Below, piece by piece: positions 9,611 to 47,846 of a DNA stretch of 64,000 bases. Under the pieces are notes generated by a model. That model did no database searches. It was given only the letters and a program-made list of their open reading frames with translations, and was not told the origin of the DNA. Every line of letters starts with the position of its first letter. Position 1 is the first letter of the stretch. Source of the stretch: Clostridia bacterium (lineage in GTDB: Bacteria > Bacillota > Clostridia > Oscillospirales > CAG-272); assembly GCA_017501225.1 (NCBI GenBank), contig JAFVXH010000007.1, positions 82,501 through 146,500 of the forward strand, in the 5' to 3' direction. The translations under genes and the position numbers were made by a program.

Positions 9611-11050
9611 ATGCAGTTTATCAAGCAACACAAAAAAGCCTTCCTCATCGGCACGCTCCTGTATGCGCTCGCCTTTTTTCTGATCGTCTGGTCCGCCAAT
9701 CTTGACAGGATCAATCTTTGGCTCGGCTCGGTGTTCGTGGTGTTCCGCCCGGTGATCATCGGCCTTGCCCTGGCCTATCTTTGCAATCCCTTCTTTCGCT
9801 TTTACGAGCGGAGGATGCTTGCCGGGATCAAGTCGCATCCGCTGCGCCGCACCGTCGCGCTGACACTGACGTATCTGACGCTGTTCTCGATCGTAGCAGT
9901 TCTTCTGCTTCTCATTTTGCCGCAATTGATCGACAGCGTACGCGGATTTTTGGAAAATCTGGACTCCTATCTTGCCAACGCGGTTGACGAGTGGAATCAG
10001 GCGGCACACTGGCTCAACGCCCGTCTTCCCAAGAACGACCTTGGCGAGGGGTTGATTCCCATGCTCCAGAGGGGCAATACGGAAAGCATCACGGAAAGCA
10101 TTCTCAAATTTTTCCGGCTGGAGGAGCTTCAGATTCTGGATCTGCTGTCCCCCGACATGATCGGCTCGATCTTCGACGTTGCAAGCAATCTCTTCCTGAT
10201 CGCGGCAGACGTGCTGTTCGGACTCTTTATTTCGCTCTACCTGCTTGCCAGCAAGGAAAAGCGCTACGCGCAGATCATGCGCGCGCGCCGCGCGTTTTTG
10301 AGTGACGGTGTCAACGCGGCACTCACCAAGATCTGCACGACGGCGGACCGCTCCTTCGGAAGCTTTTTCAAGGGCAAGCTGATCGACTCCGCCATCATCG
10401 GCGTCCTGACCTATATCATCATCTCGATCTTCAACGTTCCTTATGCGATCCTGATTGCCGCCATTGTGGCGATCACCGATATCATCCCCGTCGTAGGTCC
10501 CTTTATCGGCGTGCTCCCCGCATCGGTCATCATTGTGCTGACCGATCCGCCCAAGATCATTCCGTTCATTCTTGCGATCCTTGTCATTCAGCAGATCGAC
10601 GGCAATATCATCGCACCCAAGATCTTAGGAGAGCACACGGGCGTCAGCTCGCTTTGCGTCATCGTGGCGATCACCGTCATGGGCAGCCTTTGGGGCTTTG
10701 TCGGAATGCTTCTGGGCGTTCCGATCTTTGCGACCGTCCTTGAGCTTGGCAGCGCTTATCTCGATAACCGTCTGCGCAAGAAGGGGCTCCCCGTGGAAAC
10801 CAGATATTATTCGAGCGAGCATCCCGACGAGCTTGCCGGCAGTGACGCGCCTGCTCAGCAGGAAGCAACGCAGCCCGCTCCCCGCCGCCACGGAATGGCA
10901 AAGGAAAGTCTTTCTCCGGAGGAGAAGCAACAGCTCCGCGCCTACGCGCTGGCACACAGAAGCCAGCTCTTTTCAGAGGATGCGGAAACCGTGCTGGAGC
11001 AATACGCTCCAACCGAACATGAAAAGAATTCCACCGATGCCAACGCATAA
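9611..11050 (+). CDS. AI-2E family transporter, paralogue 2
   Basis: Same family blocks (IPVVGPFIGVLPAS, IQQIDGNIIAPKILGEHTGVSSL, GSLWGFVGMLLGVPIFA). Start at ATG 9611 with an AAGGAGAG RBS. The track start 9500 would overlap paralogue 1. Confidence 0.85.
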   Translation: MQFIKQHKKAFLIGTLLYALAFFLIVWSANLDRINLWLGSVFVVFRPVIIGLALAYLCNPFFRFYERRMLAGIKSHPLRRTVALTLTYLTLFSIVAVLLLLILPQLIDSVRGFLENLDSYLANAVDEWNQAAHWLNARLPKNDLGEGLIPMLQRGNTESITESILKFFRLEELQILDLLSPDMIGSIFDVASNLFLIAADVLFGLFISLYLLASKEKRYAQIMRARRAFLSDGVNAALTKICTTADRSFGSFFKGKLIDSAIIGVLTYIIISIFNVPYAILIAAIVAITDIIPVVGPFIGVLPASVIIVLTDPPKIIPFILAILVIQQIDGNIIAPKILGEHTGVSSLCVIVAITVMGSLWGFVGMLLGVPIFATVLELGSAYLDNRLRKKGLPVETRYYSSEHPDELAGSDAPAQQEATQPAPRRHGMAKESLSPEEKQQLRAYALAHRSQLFSEDAETVLEQYAPTEHEKNSTDANA

Positions 11051-22599: not shown

Positions 22600-22907
22600 C
22601 TGCTGCTTAAAATCCTTGCGGATAAATTTACTGCTTCGGTGCGCAAAAACAAAAAACGCCCCATAGCCTGATGCCATGAGACGGAATGTTCCGCGGTACC
22701 ACTCATTTTCGCCTTGCGGCGCAACTCAAGGGCCTTGTAAAGGAAAGCCCGTAACCTTAACGCGGTCGCACGGATATGCTTACTGATTCGGTTCAGCATA
22801 TCGACTCGGAAGTGATGCTGTCGCAAGCTACTGACTGCGCGCTCGCACCGAATGCGCGCTCTCTGTAAGCCTTCCCTTGCACAGTGTCTTCGTCACCGTC
22901 TTTTTAC
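22600..22907 (-). promoter_or_regulatory. T-box leader (Ile specifier) with terminator
   Basis: Minus strand shows stem I AGAGAGCGCGC...GGTGCGAGCGCGCAGTCAGTAG. The candidate specifier is ATC (22816..22814) followed by A. The T-box is AATGAGTGGTACCGCGG (core 22704..22691). The terminator is CGTCTCAT-N11-ATGGGGCG (22683..22657) plus TTTTTTGTTTTT. Confidence 0.85.
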
Positions 22908-23940: not shown

Positions 23941-24558
23941 ATGTGGACTTACGATAGAAAATTACAGTATCCCGTCAAGATCAAAAATCCCAACCCACAG
24001 CTTGCGACCATCATCATTTCCCAGCTGGGAGGACCCGACGGTGAGCTTGGCGCATCCATGCGCTATTTGCATCAGCGTTATTCCATGCCCTACGGAAAGG
24101 TAACGGGAATTCTCACCGACGTAGGAACCGAGGAGCTGGCGCACCTGGAGATGGTAGCCGCCATCATCCATCAGCTCACGCGCAATCTGAGTGAGGAGGA
24201 GATTCAGAAATCTCCGTTTGCAAACTACTTTGTGGATCACACGACGGGCGTTTATCCCGTTGCGGCATCCGCCGTGCCCTTTGACATGAAGTATATCGGT
24301 GTCAAGGGCGACGTCATCGCGGATCTGAACGAGGACCTGGCTGCCGAGCAAAAGGCACGCGTGACCTACGACAACATTCTGCGTCTGACCGACGATCCCG
24401 ACGTCAAGGACGTCATCCGCTATCTGCGCGAGCGTGAGATCGTGCACTACCAGCGCTTCGGCGACGCTTTGCGCATCACGCAGGAGCAGCTGGACAGCAA
24501 GAACTTTTACGCCTTCAACCCCGCGTTTGATAAGCATTGCAACAAAAAGCAACGCTGA
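23941..24558 (+). CDS. cotJC: spore coat protein CotJC (manganese-catalase family)
   Basis: MWTYDRKLQYPVKIKNPNPQLATIIISQLGGPDGELGASMRYLHQRYSMP...EELAHLEM is the ferritin-like Mn-catalase fold. AAGGAGG RBS. Confidence 0.92.
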   Translation: MWTYDRKLQYPVKIKNPNPQLATIIISQLGGPDGELGASMRYLHQRYSMPYGKVTGILTDVGTEELAHLEMVAAIIHQLTRNLSEEEIQKSPFANYFVDHTTGVYPVAASAVPFDMKYIGVKGDVIADLNEDLAAEQKARVTYDNILRLTDDPDVKDVIRYLREREIVHYQRFGDALRITQEQLDSKNFYAFNPAFDKHCNKKQR

Positions 24559-24597
24559 TCGCACGCACGCCCATCCCTTTTCCCCAAAAAAGGGATA

Positions 24598-24633
24598 CCC
24601 CCACGGCTTTGTTTGCCGTGGGGGCTTTGTTTT
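24598..24633 (+). terminator. rho-independent terminator of cotJABC
   Basis: CCCCCACGGC-tttgttt-GCCGTGGGGG, then CTTTGTTTT. Confidence 0.8.
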
Positions 24634-24674
24634 AATGCCTTTAGGTAGTTGGGCACGAAGTGCGAAACAGACAA

Positions 24675-24713
24675 CCACCCGCTATGCGGGTGGGCAATAA
24701 TGGGGTTATACCC
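24675..24713. repeat. 39-nt hairpin-containing repeat, copy A
   Basis: CCACCCGCTATGCGGGTGGGCAATAATGGGGTTATACCC. In an ungapped alignment 27 of 39 positions are identical to copy B. Both copies start with a CCACCCG...CGGGTGG hairpin and end in TATACCC. Confidence 0.6.
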
Positions 24714-24939
24714 ATATTAAACGAGCAAGAAGGTTAGCGTTATGGGGATCATGCCGCCGGATAAACGGATTGAGATCTTTGCAAACGGGACGCCCGGGAG
24801 GTCGTCCCCTACAAGGGATGTTCATGATTTTTACGTGGGACGTCCTTTTTTTGACCGTAGGGGTCGACGTCCTCGGCGACCCGTCGGAAATTTTATATAA
24901 GCCGTCCTTCCGAAGGGAGGCTGCGTTGGCAAAACGCTT

Positions 24940-24973
24940 TTGCAAAGCAAAAGCCAGCGGCTTGAGCCGCTGG
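24940..24973 (-). terminator. candidate terminator for the GH2 gene
   Basis: Minus strand: CCAGCGGC-tcaa-GCCGCTGG (24973..24954), then CTTTTGCTTTGC. It lies about 75 nt after the GH2 stop. Confidence 0.45.
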
Positions 24974-25006
24974 CCGGTAGTATTGGGCTTTTGCCCCTTG
25001 TGCATA

Positions 25007-25045
25007 CCACCCGTTTGACGGGTGGTTATGATTTCGGATATACCC
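25007..25045. repeat. 39-nt hairpin-containing repeat, copy B
   Basis: CCACCCGTTTGACGGGTGGTTATGATTTCGGATATACCC, 332 bp from copy A in the same orientation. It ends 3 nt before the GH2 stop codon. Confidence 0.6.
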
Positions 25046-25048
25046 TGA

Positions 25049-28000
25049 TTATCTTGGTTTGACCGCAAAGGGATCGACGTCGTTTGCAAAAATGGGAAGC
25101 AGACGGAAGGAGTAGTGATAATCTCCCGAATAGATGCAATATTCATCCGCAAGCTTCGGTCCGCAATAGTTCGATCCGACACCGCATTGCTTGAAGTCCA
25201 CGTTGACAACGGTTTCCGCCATGGGCTCAAGCTCGTAGTCGTGCCGGGTCTGTGTCAGCTGCATCGGCGTGTAGTGCGAGCAGTTGAAGCTGAAATCGGG
25301 CGTATTGTCTGCACCCGTGATGAGAAGTCCGTGACCTGCCACAGAGTAGATCTTTGCCCACTTGGTACCAAGATGCGCCATGTTCTCCTGCGGCTTGACG
25401 TAATGCTCGAAATGATCCGCAACGCGGCTCTCGAACAGTCCCATACGTGCCGCCAGACACTTATCCTGATAGGTTTCCATCGGTCCCATACCGAAGTAGC
25501 GGAGCTGCTCGGTGCCCTTGGGCATCTGGAACTGGATACCCAGACGCGGGAGTGTGACGGGATTATAATAGGTCTGATCGACGTTGACGTCGTAGCGCAG
25601 GGTAATTCCCTCGCCGCGGTTGACGGTGTAGAAGACGTCTGCGTGGATCAGCATATGTCTTGTCACCGCGCCGATATGGAGTCTTACCTTGACGGAGATG
25701 CAATTCTCGTTCTCCTCGACGACCTGGCATCCGTGGCACATGCTGATCAGGCGATCATAGCCCTGCTCGACCCATTCCAAAGCGGGGGTACGGTCGTTAT
25801 CGGTAGGAGCGCGCCAGAGATTGAATTCGATGGGAGTGGTCAGAAGCTCCTTGCCGTGATCGCGAATCGAGGTAACGGTGCCCTCGACCTCGCTCACGGT
25901 GTAAACCGTATGTCCGTCGCGGATCAGAAGATCGTGCCCACACTTGGTCAGCGAGAATTCCCCCTCGCGCTTGGGCGCAAGCGTCACGTTCTGTGCAGCC
26001 TGCAAGGGGAACTGCTCGATACCGACCTCATATCCCGCCTCTGCCCAAGGCAGGTCGTACTTGGTGCGGTAGGATACGTTGAGATAGCAATATCCTCGCA
26101 AGGAAGAAAGATCACCAAGGGAAAGACCGATCTCCTCCTCGGTCTGGGGCTGCGTATTGAGGGCTACCTTGCCTCTGCGCACGACCTTGCCGTTGCTTTC
26201 GATCGTCCAGCAGAGCTCAACGTCGGAAAGATCGGTAAAGTATTTGCGGTTGCGCAGCGTGATGACCTGACGCTTCTCGTCGAAGGCAGTCGCGATCACG
26301 GGACGGAGCAGCTGCTTGTGCTCCAGCATGCCCGTATGCACGCGGCGATCGGGATAAACCATACCGTCAATGCAGCAATTTGCACCGTGCAGGAAGGGAT
26401 CAAGGTCACCGCCATAGACAAATTTAGGATGCTCGGGCGTTCCGATATCCACGCTGTGGTCGGTCATTTCCCAGACGCATGCGCCAAAGAAATCGTCGTG
26501 CGTCCAGATCAGATCCCAATAGGGCTTCAGATCTCCGGGGCCGTTGCCCATCGCGTGGCAGTACTCGCAAAGGAAGAGCGGACGCTCTGCCTCGGGGTTT
26601 TCCAGATATTCGTCGATGCACTCCTGCGGCGAAATATACATGCGGCTGTCGACGTCGACGTAGTAATCGTCCAGAAGCTCCTTGAAGTCCTCGTACTTAA
26701 GAGTGCGTACCAGGGGATTCTGTGCCTTGAGCATGGACTTGAAGTAGTTATAGCGCTCGTTGTGGACGATGCTGCCGGGCATTCTCGTATGAATGTAGTC
26801 TGCCATGGGTCGGTGGTTTTCACCAATGGCGGTTTCGTTGCCAAGTGACCACATCAGCACGCAAGAGAAGTTCTTGTCGCGCTCAAACAGGCAGATCGCG
26901 CGATCCATGAACGCCTCGCGCCATTCGGGATAGGTCGCAAGCGTGGGATGATGCGAGCCGTTTGCCCAGTCCATACCGTGCGTTTCCAGGTCCGCCTCGT
27001 CGCAGACGTAGAAGCCCAAGCGATTGCAAAGCTCCATAAAGCGAGGCTCGTTGGGATAGTGGCTCGTGCGCACCATGTTGAAGTTATGCTGCTTGAGAAT
27101 ATAAAGATCGCGGATCATGTGCTCCAAGGGAGTTGCCGCACCAAGATTGGGGTGACTGTCGTGGCGGTTGATGCCCTTGCCCTTGACCAGCTTGTTATTG
27201 ACGTACAGATATTTTCCCTTGACCTCAAAGCGGCGCACACCGATCTCCTGACGGATGACCTCGTTTCCGCTAAAGAAATACAGCTCGTACAGATTCGGGG
27301 TTTCATCGCTCCAAAGCATGGGGCTTTGCAGTGTGATCGCGAGATCGCCACGTCCGTTTTCAACGTCGATACAGCCCGTTGCAACGGTCTGACCGTCGGG
27401 CGTCAGCAGCTTATACGGAACGCTTGCGTCACCGTTCATTTCCATCTCAACCGTAAGAGTCGCCACGCTCAGGTCGTCGTTCAATGCCGTGCGTACGTAG
27501 AAATCCTCAATGCGGACAGGGTCGCGCTTGAGCAGATAGACCTCACGGAAGATACCGGACAGACGGATCTTATCCTGATCCTCAAGGTAGGTTCCGTCAC
27601 ACCATTTGATCACCAGCACCTTGATCTCGTTCGTGCCCGCTACCAGATATCTGTCAATGGCAACCTCGGTCATGCTGTGGCTTCCCTGCGTGTATGCGGC
27701 AAACTGATTGTTGACAAACAGATAAAAGCAGGAATCCGCGCCCTCGAACACCAGATTGATCTGAAAATCCTTCAGATCCGGCTCGGTCACCTCAACCTCG
27801 CGTCTGTAAAGCGCGCAAGGATTGTAATAGGACACGTGGGGAGGATCGAGCGGAAAGGAATAGTTGATGGCGTGATAGTGCGGACGGTCATAGTCGCGAT
27901 CCAGCGCCAGCTGCCAGCTCATGGGAACGGTCATCTTCTCCCATTCGGTCACAGCACCCTCCTGCGTAAAAGCGTCGGTTTCGGGCACGTGGGTGTAGTA

Positions 28001-28159
28001 ATGAAAATCCCACTCACCGCACAGACTGACAAAGCGCTCGCTCTCCGCGCGGTTGCCGCGAGAGGCAAGGAATTCGCTCTGGTAAGGGATAAAATACGCA
28101 CGTTGCTTCTCACAGCCTTGATGTAAAATATCCAAGCTCTTGTGATAGTTCAGTTCCAT
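25049..28159 (-). CDS. beta-galactosidase, glycoside hydrolase family 2 (LacZ-type)
   Basis: Acid/base region MWSLGNETAIGEN and nucleophile region LCEYCHAMGNGPG, with a C-terminal small-chain domain. Start at ATG 28159 (AGGAGAAAC RBS) rather than the track start 28225. Confidence 0.9.
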   Translation of the reverse strand: MELNYHKSLDILHQGCEKQRAYFIPYQSEFLASRGNRAESERFVSLCGEWDFHYYTHVPETDAFTQEGAVTEWEKMTVPMSWQLALDRDYDRPHYHAINYSFPLDPPHVSYYNPCALYRREVEVTEPDLKDFQINLVFEGADSCFYLFVNNQFAAYTQGSHSMTEVAIDRYLVAGTNEIKVLVIKWCDGTYLEDQDKIRLSGIFREVYLLKRDPVRIEDFYVRTALNDDLSVATLTVEMEMNGDASVPYKLLTPDGQTVATGCIDVENGRGDLAITLQSPMLWSDETPNLYELYFFSGNEVIRQEIGVRRFEVKGKYLYVNNKLVKGKGINRHDSHPNLGAATPLEHMIRDLYILKQHNFNMVRTSHYPNEPRFMELCNRLGFYVCDEADLETHGMDWANGSHHPTLATYPEWREAFMDRAICLFERDKNFSCVLMWSLGNETAIGENHRPMADYIHTRMPGSIVHNERYNYFKSMLKAQNPLVRTLKYEDFKELLDDYYVDVDSRMYISPQECIDEYLENPEAERPLFLCEYCHAMGNGPGDLKPYWDLIWTHDDFFGACVWEMTDHSVDIGTPEHPKFVYGGDLDPFLHGANCCIDGMVYPDRRVHTGMLEHKQLLRPVIATAFDEKRQVITLRNRKYFTDLSDVELCWTIESNGKVVRRGKVALNTQPQTEEEIGLSLGDLSSLRGYCYLNVSYRTKYDLPWAEAGYEVGIEQFPLQAAQNVTLAPKREGEFSLTKCGHDLLIRDGHTVYTVSEVEGTVTSIRDHGKELLTTPIEFNLWRAPTDNDRTPALEWVEQGYDRLISMCHGCQVVEENENCISVKVRLHIGAVTRHMLIHADVFYTVNRGEGITLRYDVNVDQTYYNPVTLPRLGIQFQMPKGTEQLRYFGMGPMETYQDKCLAARMGLFESRVADHFEHYVKPQENMAHLGTKWAKIYSVAGHGLLITGADNTPDFSFNCSHYTPMQLTQTRHDYELEPMAETVVNVDFKQCGVGSNYCGPKLADEYCIYSGDYHYSFRLLPIFANDVDPFAVKPR

Positions 28160-28203
28160 TGATATGTTTCTCCTGTGTCGAGTATTGATTGCGCCGTTGC
28201 TCT

Positions 28204-29391
28204 TTACTGCTTTTTGGGATTCCACTTGGTATAGAGGAAGCTGGGACGTGCATCGTCAAAATATCTCTGATAGTACACGGTCACAAGCTCACCGCTCGGA
28301 AGCTGAGTGGTTGCGGGATAGCCGAGATCATCGCACTCGGGATTCCAGGAGGCGGAAAGGATGATCTCCTCACCCCAATTATATCCGCCGTCATAGCTGA
28401 GGATCGCGCGGTTACTCGTGGGTGCTACGCGACGGCTGTAGGACAGCACGATGGCACCGTCCGCCGTTTCAAAAAGGTGGGGGGGAGCACCGATGACGAC
28501 CTGACCGTCGCAATTGGTCAGAGGCTCCGCGGTCGACCAGGTCTTGCCACCGTTCTGAGAATGGCTCAGATACACGACCTCCTTCTCACTGCGGCGCAGG
28601 GTTTCGTTGTTGTCGCCCTTGCGGATGGCAACCAGCAGATGTCCGTTCTGACGCTCTACGACGTGCGCCTCGCACATATAGAAATGTCCTGCGGGATAGT
28701 TCCAGGTTTCCGGCGGCATCGAGATATCCGCAAGCTTTTTCCAGGTAGCGCCCTCGTCCTCGCTCACCATGGCGATGACGGAGTTGGTATACTCGGTGGT
28801 GTCGCCTGTTGCACGCTGATATGCCTCCACCTCGTGAGGCGTTCCGACGTAAAGCAATCTGCCGTCCTTGAGCCTGGTCGGTCCGTGCGGAGCCGAGATG
28901 GGAAGATGGACCTTTTCTCCCCAGGTTTTTCCGTAATCCTTGGAAACACGGATATAGCTTGCGCCGTATCTCTGATCCTCCGGCGTTGCGGCAATGGCAT
29001 CCAATGCGCGCTTCTTTGCCTCCTCGGTACCGTATTTGGGAATAAAGCGCATCCACCAGCTGTAAATGCCGCCCTCGGCATAGCGGTTAAGATCATGCGT
29101 AAAGTAGCTCATGATCATTTTCCCGTCACCCAGATAGCAAATACCCGCGTCACGGTCATCGAATGCATCGTCTACGACCACCTGAGGCTCGGACCAGGTT
29201 TTACCTCCGTCCGTGCTGCGATATAAGCAATATTGTCCAAAGGGACAAACGTGCACCATGCGTCTGGATACCACCGCATACAGCACGCCGTTCTCATCGC
29301 TGCAGACCGTGGGCCAACCGAAATAGCCCAAAAGATCCTCCTGCTGTCTTGCGATAATTCCCTGCTCGATAATCATTTTTTGTGTTTTCAT
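28204..29391 (-). CDS. BNR/Asp-box repeat protein (sialidase-fold glycosidase-like)
   Basis: Five Asp-box-like motifs: STDGGKTWS, SKDYGKTWG, SEDEGATWK, SQNGGKTWS and SYDGGYNWG. Start at ATG 29391 (AAGGAGAC RBS). No N-terminal signal peptide is visible. Confidence 0.75.
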   Translation of the reverse strand: MKTQKMIIEQGIIARQQEDLLGYFGWPTVCSDENGVLYAVVSRRMVHVCPFGQYCLYRSTDGGKTWSEPQVVVDDAFDDRDAGICYLGDGKMIMSYFTHDLNRYAEGGIYSWWMRFIPKYGTEEAKKRALDAIAATPEDQRYGASYIRVSKDYGKTWGEKVHLPISAPHGPTRLKDGRLLYVGTPHEVEAYQRATGDTTEYTNSVIAMVSEDEGATWKKLADISMPPETWNYPAGHFYMCEAHVVERQNGHLLVAIRKGDNNETLRRSEKEVVYLSHSQNGGKTWSTAEPLTNCDGQVVIGAPPHLFETADGAIVLSYSRRVAPTSNRAILSYDGGYNWGEEIILSASWNPECDDLGYPATTQLPSGELVTVYYQRYFDDARPSFLYTKWNPKKQ

Positions 29392-29575
29392 GGTATAGGT
29401 CTCCTTTTTTACTCCCAACAAAAGGCTGTTTGGCAGAGGATTTTCGGGAGGCGCATAGGGGCTCCCGTTGGTTTAATTGTACCATAGGAAATATGGAAAA
29501 ACAAGCCTTTTCTCAATAATATTTTCAGATTTTTCCTACTCAAATCAGCAAGAAAAAACATAACGTAGCAGGAAC

Positions 29576-45398: not shown

Positions 45399-45720
45399 TG
45401 TTTTTGCCTCCTTATCAGATTTCGCTTGTCTGCGGCGCCTATATAATAAATGGTAGGGAAGGTCCGCAGGCCGCGTTTGTGCAAGGCAGGCTTTTTCTCC
45501 AACACTGTGCCGTGCGTTTCTTGATGCTCCTTAAAAATGTCGGACTTTGCCCTTGCCATCAGCATCTGGCAGGACAAATTCCGGGGGTGGATCAGTCAGA
45601 ATTGCATTGGCACAACGCCTTTGAAAAACACCTTTCGCCCGGTTCAACGGACATACTCCACGAAAATTCCCTGTCGGAGCGTCCCCCGACAGCAACCTTT
45701 CGCTTCATCGCATATCAAGC
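45399..45720 (-). promoter_or_regulatory. long (~320 nt) 5' leader of the S10 operon, candidate regulatory RNA
   Basis: This is the region between the consensus promoter (45755..45727) and the rpsJ ATG. It has no credible ORF. Hairpins on the minus strand include CTGTCGG-gggacgct-CCGACAG and TGCCA-gatgctga-TGGCA. The function is not established. Confidence 0.4.
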
Positions 45721-47654: not shown

Positions 47655-47683
47655 TTGACAAAGGAAATGCGGTGTGGTATAAT
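47655..47683 (+). promoter_or_regulatory. sigmaA-type promoter of rplJL (consensus, extended -10, A/T-rich UP region)
   Basis: TTGACA (47655..47660), a 17-nt spacer ending in TGg, then TATAAT (47678..47683). It is preceded by the A/T palindrome TTTTTTGAA-N5-TTCAAAAAA (47628..47650). Confidence 0.75.
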
Positions 47684-47689
47684 ACCTCC

Positions 47690-47846
47690 GTTATCCGAAG
47701 ACAGCAGGTTCCGGTAAAAGCATTGCTTTCCTGCCGAGGAGATGAATTGAATTACAGAGATGTAGTTGCAATCTTTCCTTGGAGGCGCTGTGCCTGCCGG
47801 AGGAAAGATTTTTTATTTGCCAATTCACATTGGGAGGTGAAACGAA
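47690..47846 (+). promoter_or_regulatory. L10 (rplJ) leader with intrinsic attenuator
   Basis: Structured 5' UTR ahead of rplJ. The hairpin TCTTTCCT...AGGAAAGA (47772..47808) is followed by TTTTTTATTT, then the GGGAGGTG RBS. The position and architecture match the Firmicute L10-leader class. Confidence 0.6.

Follow-up and report, generated by a model that had tools for sequence, protein, structure and literature searches.

Genes and hairpins between cotJC and the GH2 gene

In the window, by which we mean the whole 64-kb stretch of DNA that was analysed, the cotJC gene (23941-24558, plus strand), which carries the Pfam Mn_catalase domain, converges with a GH2 beta-galactosidase gene (25049-28225, minus strand). 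The cotJA and cotJB genes lie upstream of cotJC, and ileS with its T-box leader is located on the opposite strand upstream of the cotJ genes. Beyond the GH2 gene there are a BNR-repeat gene, rplQ and rpoA. The organism, an uncultured Clostridia bacterium, is near to MAGs of Oscillospiraceae/Acutalibacteraceae, and the best match of cotJC among GTDB species is at 88%. The cotJABC operon has its intrinsic terminator at 24598-24624 (plus strand; a 10-bp GC stem with an A-run before it and a T-run after it). This terminator also scores on the minus strand, and it is outside the repeat family described below.

The gap between the two genes had been put at 415 bp. This value is right if the gap is counted from the cotJC terminator; from stop codon to stop codon it extends over 24559-25048 and measures 490 bp. 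The absence of a credible long ORF, proposed in the sequence-only reading, is confirmed: gene callers place no gene there in any public contig, and the gap ORFs of 52 aa and 59 aa are on record nowhere as called genes.

GH2 beta-galactosidase and one to four BNR-repeat (sialidase-like) genes stand between rplQ and the cotJ operon in the window (25049-29421) and in L207 and L208. The GH2/BNR arrangement is common to the window and to its 66%-identical relative L207; the neighbours are different at most cotJC loci of related species. Elsewhere in the window Rfam recognizes a T-box leader at 22674-22905 (minus strand; RF00230, 97 bits) upstream of the isoleucyl-tRNA synthetase gene, an L10_leader at 47677-47824 (plus strand; RF00557, 51.7 bits) and an S10-Clostridia ribosomal protein leader at 45635-45717 (minus strand; RF03136, 42.6 bits).

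The hairpins listed for the gap in the sequence-only reading are all present, at 24675-24693, 24787-24808, 24838-24844 paired with 24866-24872, 24861-24882, 24936-24954, 24954-24973 and 25007-25025. So are four copies of CGTCCY, at 24803, 24841, 24868 and 24903, with 0.44 expected at the density of the window. The plus strand of 24634-25048 folds with an MFE of -185 kcal/mol (z = -7.5 versus shuffles) and the minus strand with -158 kcal/mol (z = -6.7), and the terminator scan gives 7 terminator-like hairpins in the gap versus 1.4 expected. Both the z-scores of the fold and the excess of hairpins are above chance. On the plus strand, z is -2.0 and not significant for the left part (24634-24784), -6.3 for the central 100 nt (24785-24884) and -5.1 for the right part (24885-25048). 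Hence, the left third is unremarkable and the folding signal comes from the centre and the right.

An inverted pair of GTAG-tagged repeats

REPs are small DNA palindromes, which are spread by RAYT tyrosine (HUH/Y1) transposases and classically occur in more than 100 copies per genome. Two hairpins of the gap, GGGACG...CGTCCC and GGGTCG...CGACCC, are inverted copies of one 28-nt unit starting with GTAG, which the sequence-only reading had overlooked. In the unit, the GTAG head precedes a hairpin with a GC stem of 6 bp and a loop of 10 nt, and GT comes after it. Copy A occupies 24785-24812 on the minus strand (GTAG GGGACG ACCTCCCGGG CGTCCC GT) with 0 mismatches to the family pattern, and copy B occupies 24857-24884 on the plus strand (GTAG GGGTCG ACGTCCTCGG CGACCC GT). 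The repeat finder reports them as inverted repeats (I1), the arms of which are 82% complementary. As DNA hairpins copies A and B fold with -9.2 and -9.9 kcal/mol, respectively.

The GTAG ends of the two copies face inwards, so that the dimer is of the type named TT by Di Nocera et al. 2013, and they are separated by a 44-bp spacer (24813-24856). Inside the spacer, at about 24833-24846, there is a REP-like piece, ACGTGGGACGTCCT, which by its sequence could be a third, truncated REP. The alternative pairing of GGACGTC with GACGTCC, pointed out in the sequence-only reading, exists because of this piece.

A degenerate pattern derived from the family copies matches copies A and B alone in the window, with 0.02 matches expected by chance. 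The covariance model R1 scores copy A with 37.5 bits (E = 1e-9) and copy B with 44 bits (E = 1e-11), values that are not independent, as both copies are in the seed alignment A4. Neither BLAST, nor the pattern, nor the covariance model detects a REP copy beyond A and B in the 64-kb window. In comparison with Rho-independent terminators, the REP units are devoid of a T-run, have a 10-nt loop and possess a sequence common to unrelated loci.

In published work GTAG-tagged REPs are palindromes of 20-40 nt, which frequently form inverted dimers 20-100 bp apart and are found preferentially where neighbouring genes converge or run in the same direction (PMC3733652). The substrate of TnpA-REP is REP DNA in single-stranded form, and neither the GTAG nor the hairpin is dispensable (PMC8266576). 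The dimer of the window is extragenic, as it is located between the stop codons of cotJC and the GH2 gene. Thus, the element fits the published tag, size, dimer spacing and location, in agreement with the REP literature.

The repeat family in gut Clostridia

Compared by BLAST with 80 cotJC loci from related species, the gap has as its sole match the 28-nt unit, which is found in L016, L027, L048, L068, L070 and L079; the regions downstream of the 80 cotJC loci from GTDB species are unrelated to the gap. In L068 and L070 the copies are directly downstream of cotJC, near the contig ends, and copy B of the window is 96% identical to L068:5671-5698, itself just downstream of cotJC. Relatives of the parts of the gap were sought in 1.5 Mb of related sequence, where, apart from one hairpin copy in L039 described below, the two 28-nt units alone have relatives. 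No second copy of the whole element is found in this sequence.

At least 120 metagenome contigs match the REP pattern, their sources being human, ruminant, termite and further gut samples. If up to 3 mismatches are allowed, the family counts 189 copies in 127 loci, which are organized as singles, as HH, TT and HT dimers and as clusters. Among the 50 neighbouring pairs within 400 bp there are 21 HH pairs (GTAG outside), 7 TT pairs (GTAG inside) and 22 HT pairs (tandem). The locus L116 has 9 copies in 10.4 kb, every one of them in an inter-ORF gap, and the extragenic copies of L209 are also located in inter-ORF gaps. We note that across all loci overlap with stop-to-stop ORFs is uninformative as to intergenic location, because spurious frames in GC-rich sequence give long ORFs.

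Each of the GTAG columns is at least 90% conserved in an alignment of 92 sequences, for which the search pattern itself required GTAG and allowed up to 2 mismatches. The stem pair left free by the pattern is GC in 28, AU in 27, CG in 20 and UA in 12 of the 92 distinct copies, unpaired in 5 and never G-U, and two further stem pairs switch between Watson-Crick types. The observed covariation score is reached by 0 of 500 shuffles, and no slid register comes near it. Since G-U intermediates are almost lacking, the hairpin seems to be selected as DNA rather than as RNA. The nearest GH2 homologue outside the species of the window is 66% identical and belongs to L207, the sole syntenic relative found. 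The gap of L207 is 202 bp long, does not align with that of the window, and is unrelated and free of REPs.

Relation to RAYT-like transposases

Mini-elements composed of a REP, a 45-codon HUH fragment and an inverted REP are observed on several unrelated contigs (L079; proteins P0001-P0005). At L079:1087-1372 a REP precedes and an inverted REP follows the 45-codon fragment IELTQYGEIADKY...YVIMPKPHP. By itself this fragment has no match in Pfam or NCBIfam. With the HUH motif restored it matches Y1_Tnp (E = 0.03), and the HUH motif MPNHIH is present in less decayed copies of the fragment. The inner part of a RAYT-like gene, between the REPs, thus itself seems to be dispersed.

An exhaustive search from one of the less decayed copies yields 555 relatives. 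Some of these proteins are full-length, measure 160-185 aa and possess both the HUH motif and a tyrosine motif, Y-x3-NP. The best family match of the full-length proteins is NCBIfam NF047646, 'REP-associated tyrosine transposase' (E about 1e-17, 60-65 bits). As this model is an equivalog with a curated cut-off of 80 bits, the proteins are relatives of NF047646 and are not members by the model's own threshold. The best solved relative is TnpA-REP of E. coli (PDB 4ER8, E 3e-11), and IS200-type TnpA is matched at 0.005. A further search retrieves 6522 homologues, some of which JGI names 'REP element-mobilizing transposase RayT'. Group 1 RAYTs have been reported in Clostridia by Bertels et al. 2017.

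In L186, L209 and L212 REPs are located in and near the RAYT-like genes. The REP family is thus linked to RAYT-like genes, and the link is shown at the level of the family. The six-frame translation of the window contains no RAYT-like gene by the family profile, and among the viral contigs searched for more RAYT-like genes none was confirmed.

REPs in the reading frame of the transposase gene

In translation the REP gives VGxGVLDxP, and its reverse complement gives GxSRTPxPT. The full-length RAYT-like proteins contain both peptides, with the HUH motif between them. At the DNA level the in-frame inverted REP pair is present in three independent genes, namely at 2828-3024 in L186, at 10121-10326 in L209 (gene 10001-10516) and at 10118-10302 in L212 (gene 10001-10489). 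The two peptides are on the expected sides of the HUH motif in 98 of the 129 full-length proteins. The variable residues form combinations compatible with Watson-Crick pairing in 102 of 108 cases for the first REP and in 98 of 108 for the second (T..S 31, P..A 28, A..P 26, S..T 11). Hence, the residues co-vary as stem partners, which points to a hairpin in DNA or RNA; a constraint at the protein level does not predict such pairing.

We tentatively propose that the dimer of the window may be part of a REP-RAYT system of gut Clostridia, in which two substrate hairpins of the enzyme stand in frame within the transposase gene itself, on either side of HUH. If so, the RAYT-like gene, its mRNA or its single-stranded DNA would be a target of its own enzyme, in self-regulation, self-excision or the seeding of new REPs. 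In the REP/RAYT literature searched, a limited set that leaves novelty unproven, REPs flank RAYT genes, overlap their ends or lie within other genes, and an in-frame REP pair inside the RAYT gene was not found described. The arrangement, if general and functional, would bear on the origin of REPs and on what keeps domesticated RAYTs matched to their repeats.

At L209:221-10799 and L212:411-11482 the RAYT-like gene comes right after dnaA-dnaN-recF-gyrB-gyrA and has an RNase H gene and small ORFs of 93 aa next to it. L209 and L212 are from different organisms, and the place of the gene at gyrA looks like a fixed, vertically inherited position. The dnaA-gyrA cluster of L209 also has extragenic REP dimers in two of its gaps. 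L209 was considered as a piece of the genome of the window, as it is from the same sample as L001, but its composition is that of a different organism.

Hairpins on both sides of the dimer

The 39-mers starting at 24675 and 25007 are identical at 27 of 39 positions, as had been noted, and in the 20 nt after their hairpins at 12 of 20; about 0.2% of the 20-mer pairs of the gap match that well. The first begins with the hairpin W1 (CCACCCGC-TAT-GCGGGTGG, 24675-24693), which on the minus strand is followed by TTGTCTGTTTCG, is terminator-like and faces left (DNA fold -9.9 kcal/mol, z = -4.5). The second begins with the hairpin W2 (CCACCCG-TTTGA-CGGGTGG, 25007-25025, plus strand), which is followed by TTATGATTTCGG, is also terminator-like and faces right (-10.7 kcal/mol, z = -5.4). 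W1 and W2 are at the same time inverted repeats of each other (I2; 21 nt, 81%). The CCACCCG...CGGGTGG hairpin occurs twice in the window, both times in the gap, with 0 expected, and the related copy in L039 (5643-5662) has a similar tail and is located 80 nt after cotJC. W1 and W2 look like outward-facing terminator-type hairpins of a second small family.

Between the dimer and W2 there is a run of four short perfect hairpins (24900-24975, z about -3.6), for which no relatives are found elsewhere in the 1.5 Mb of related sequence. The last of these, GCCAGCGGC-TCAA-GCCGCTGGC followed by TTTTGCTTTGC on the minus strand (24952-24975), is most likely the terminator of the GH2 operon.

The public short contigs L003, L004 and L206, which are from low-coverage assemblies, end at 24687, 24697 and 24998, i.e., at the inner edges of W1 and W2. 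Low coverage, polymorphism or inversion may be the cause of these ends. Four longer assemblies cross the gap in one orientation and with identical sequence, and neither an insertion polymorphism nor an empty-site allele is seen among the four. There is no target-site duplication flanking W1 and W2.

Proposed origin of the gap

Taken together, the core of the gap (24785-24884) is very probably an inverted dimer of a GTAG-type REP, REPIN-like in its organization and flanked by ordinary terminator-like hairpins. Each REP unit is a short DNA hairpin with a single-stranded GTAG tag, a substrate which in characterised systems is bound and cut as single-stranded DNA by the RAYT (TnpA-REP). We infer that the dimer was placed or copied to this site by the trans action of a RAYT-like enzyme, in the space tolerated between two convergent operons and between their terminators. 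The dimer would then persist as a passenger, which can fold into a hairpin of about 100 nt in DNA or in read-through RNA, and might affect transcript ends.

Against this stand the number of copies, two per 64-kb window and far below the classic more than 100 per genome, the lack of a RAYT-like gene in the window and of an insertion polymorphism among the four assemblies, and the score of the proteins in the RAYT model, which at 60-65 bits is under the cut-off of 80. The dimer also accounts for 100 of the 415 bp only, and the right-hand hairpin run and the W hairpins are without demonstrated origin. The sequence-only reading had offered a small REP-like insertion as one of its options. It was correct as to the kind of element, but the repeated units are the central hairpins at 24785-24812 and 24857-24884 and not the 39-nt ends. 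Nor are the 415 bp one mobile element; the 39-nt repeats look like terminator-type hairpins, and there is no target-site duplication.

The segment between the CCACCCG/CGGGTGG hairpins (about 24675-25025) could instead be one inserted, polymorphic or invertible module, MITE- or inverton-like, with the REP dimer as its cargo. We regard this as improbable, even though the hairpin occurs in the window twice and both times here, W1 and W2 are mutually inverted, the single related copy again follows cotJC at 80 nt and three independent short contigs end at the inner edges. Each W hairpin with its T-rich tail resembles an ordinary intrinsic terminator, the contig ends stem from low-coverage assemblies, and the four other assemblies have a single orientation and identical sequence. 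Moreover, the module has no target-site duplication, no second whole copy in 1.5 Mb of related sequence and no recombinase nearby. A MITE in the strict sense was rejected, as the W1/W2 inverted repeat is present but there are neither a target-site duplication nor further whole copies. A CRISPR array was rejected as well, because the units are inverted and the spacing in the family is irregular.

It is very unlikely that the gap functions at the level of RNA, be it as a structured small RNA of its own or as a long structured 3' UTR belonging to cotJC or the GH2 gene, two options that had been put forward earlier. At the gathering threshold, applied to the whole window, Rfam has no match in the gap, for which the search was extended to E<=10. 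The four matches at E<=10 (0.56-5.6) are far below their thresholds, and these weak matches, which include RsaE (18 bits), STnc310 and Transposase-2, are at chance level. The fold is very stable and more so on the plus than on the minus strand, and for REPs elsewhere transcription is frequent and a stabilising effect on the mRNA upstream is possible (PMC3733652). However, the gap has no sigma-70-like promoter and is preceded by the strong cotJC terminator at 24598-24624, the gap of L207 is unrelated, outside the REP units nothing is conserved except for the W copy in L039, and the stem covaries without G-U pairs. The feature is in all likelihood a REP dimer with terminators and not a new structured RNA. 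The REP units might also be seen as the decayed remains of a RAYT-like gene that once stood at this site, given that genes of the family hold REP(+), about 150 nt and REP(-), and that decayed REP-bounded fragments exist (L079, P0001-P0005). Since the orientation here is opposite, with the GTAG ends inwards, the spacer is 44 nt and not about 150, and the family profile finds nothing in the six-frame translation of the window, we find this explanation scarcely credible.

Comparison with known systems

The REP dimer of the window is close to the GTAG-type REP, BIME and REPIN elements with their RAYTs (E. coli TnpA-REP, 4ER8; Pseudomonas REPINs). The likeness extends to the 5' GTAG, the GC-rich hairpin, the dimers and clusters, the location in gaps, the compensatory variants of the stem and TnpA-REP as the best protein match. 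However, the stem and loop of the published REP families consulted are unrelated to those found here, where the stem has 6 bp and the conserved loop, GCGTCCYCGA, has 10 nt. Uncultured gut Clostridia (Oscillospiraceae-like) are the hosts, the density in the window is low, and REPs are found inside the RAYT reading frame, whereas in the known systems they flank the RAYT gene. With TnpA of IS200/IS605 the system shares the HUH/Y1 fold and chemistry, the recognition of hairpins in single-stranded DNA and a guide tetranucleotide. Unlike in IS200/IS605, there is no insertion sequence with left and right ends, and the match to IS200-type TnpA is much weaker than that to TnpA-REP (E 0.005 vs 3e-11). 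The hairpins at 24598-24624 and 24952-24975 and, by their T-rich tails, W1 and W2 resemble Rho-independent terminators in form.

The finding of REPs in the RAYT reading frame, and this finding alone, is also similar to Rickettsia palindromic elements and in-frame intragenic REPs, where palindromes are in frame inside coding genes. The difference from the Rickettsia elements is that here the host gene is the family's own transposase, and that the positions are fixed and kept across homologues of about 50% identity. REPs of Firmicutes were not found described in the REP literature searched, where Clostridia are mentioned in one paper in passing and, in Bertels et al. 2017, for their Group 1 RAYTs. 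A GTAG-REP family of many uncultured gut Clostridia is of use for studying the plasticity of their genomes, for breaks in assemblies and for the typing of strains.

Two further loci show other settings of the repeat. At L184:4333-4549 three tandem REP units about 90-100 nt apart share one frame of a 637-aa stop-to-stop ORF, with the repeated peptide ...PNPSVGDGVLDVPS..., possibly a gene with a cluster of REPs in its reading frame. At L070:5612-5750 the REP just after cotJC is seemingly split by an insert of about 110 nt (ACGGACCGTCGAGG ... ACCGTCGGCCCCTAC), and the split copy is followed by an intact one at L070:5803-5830.
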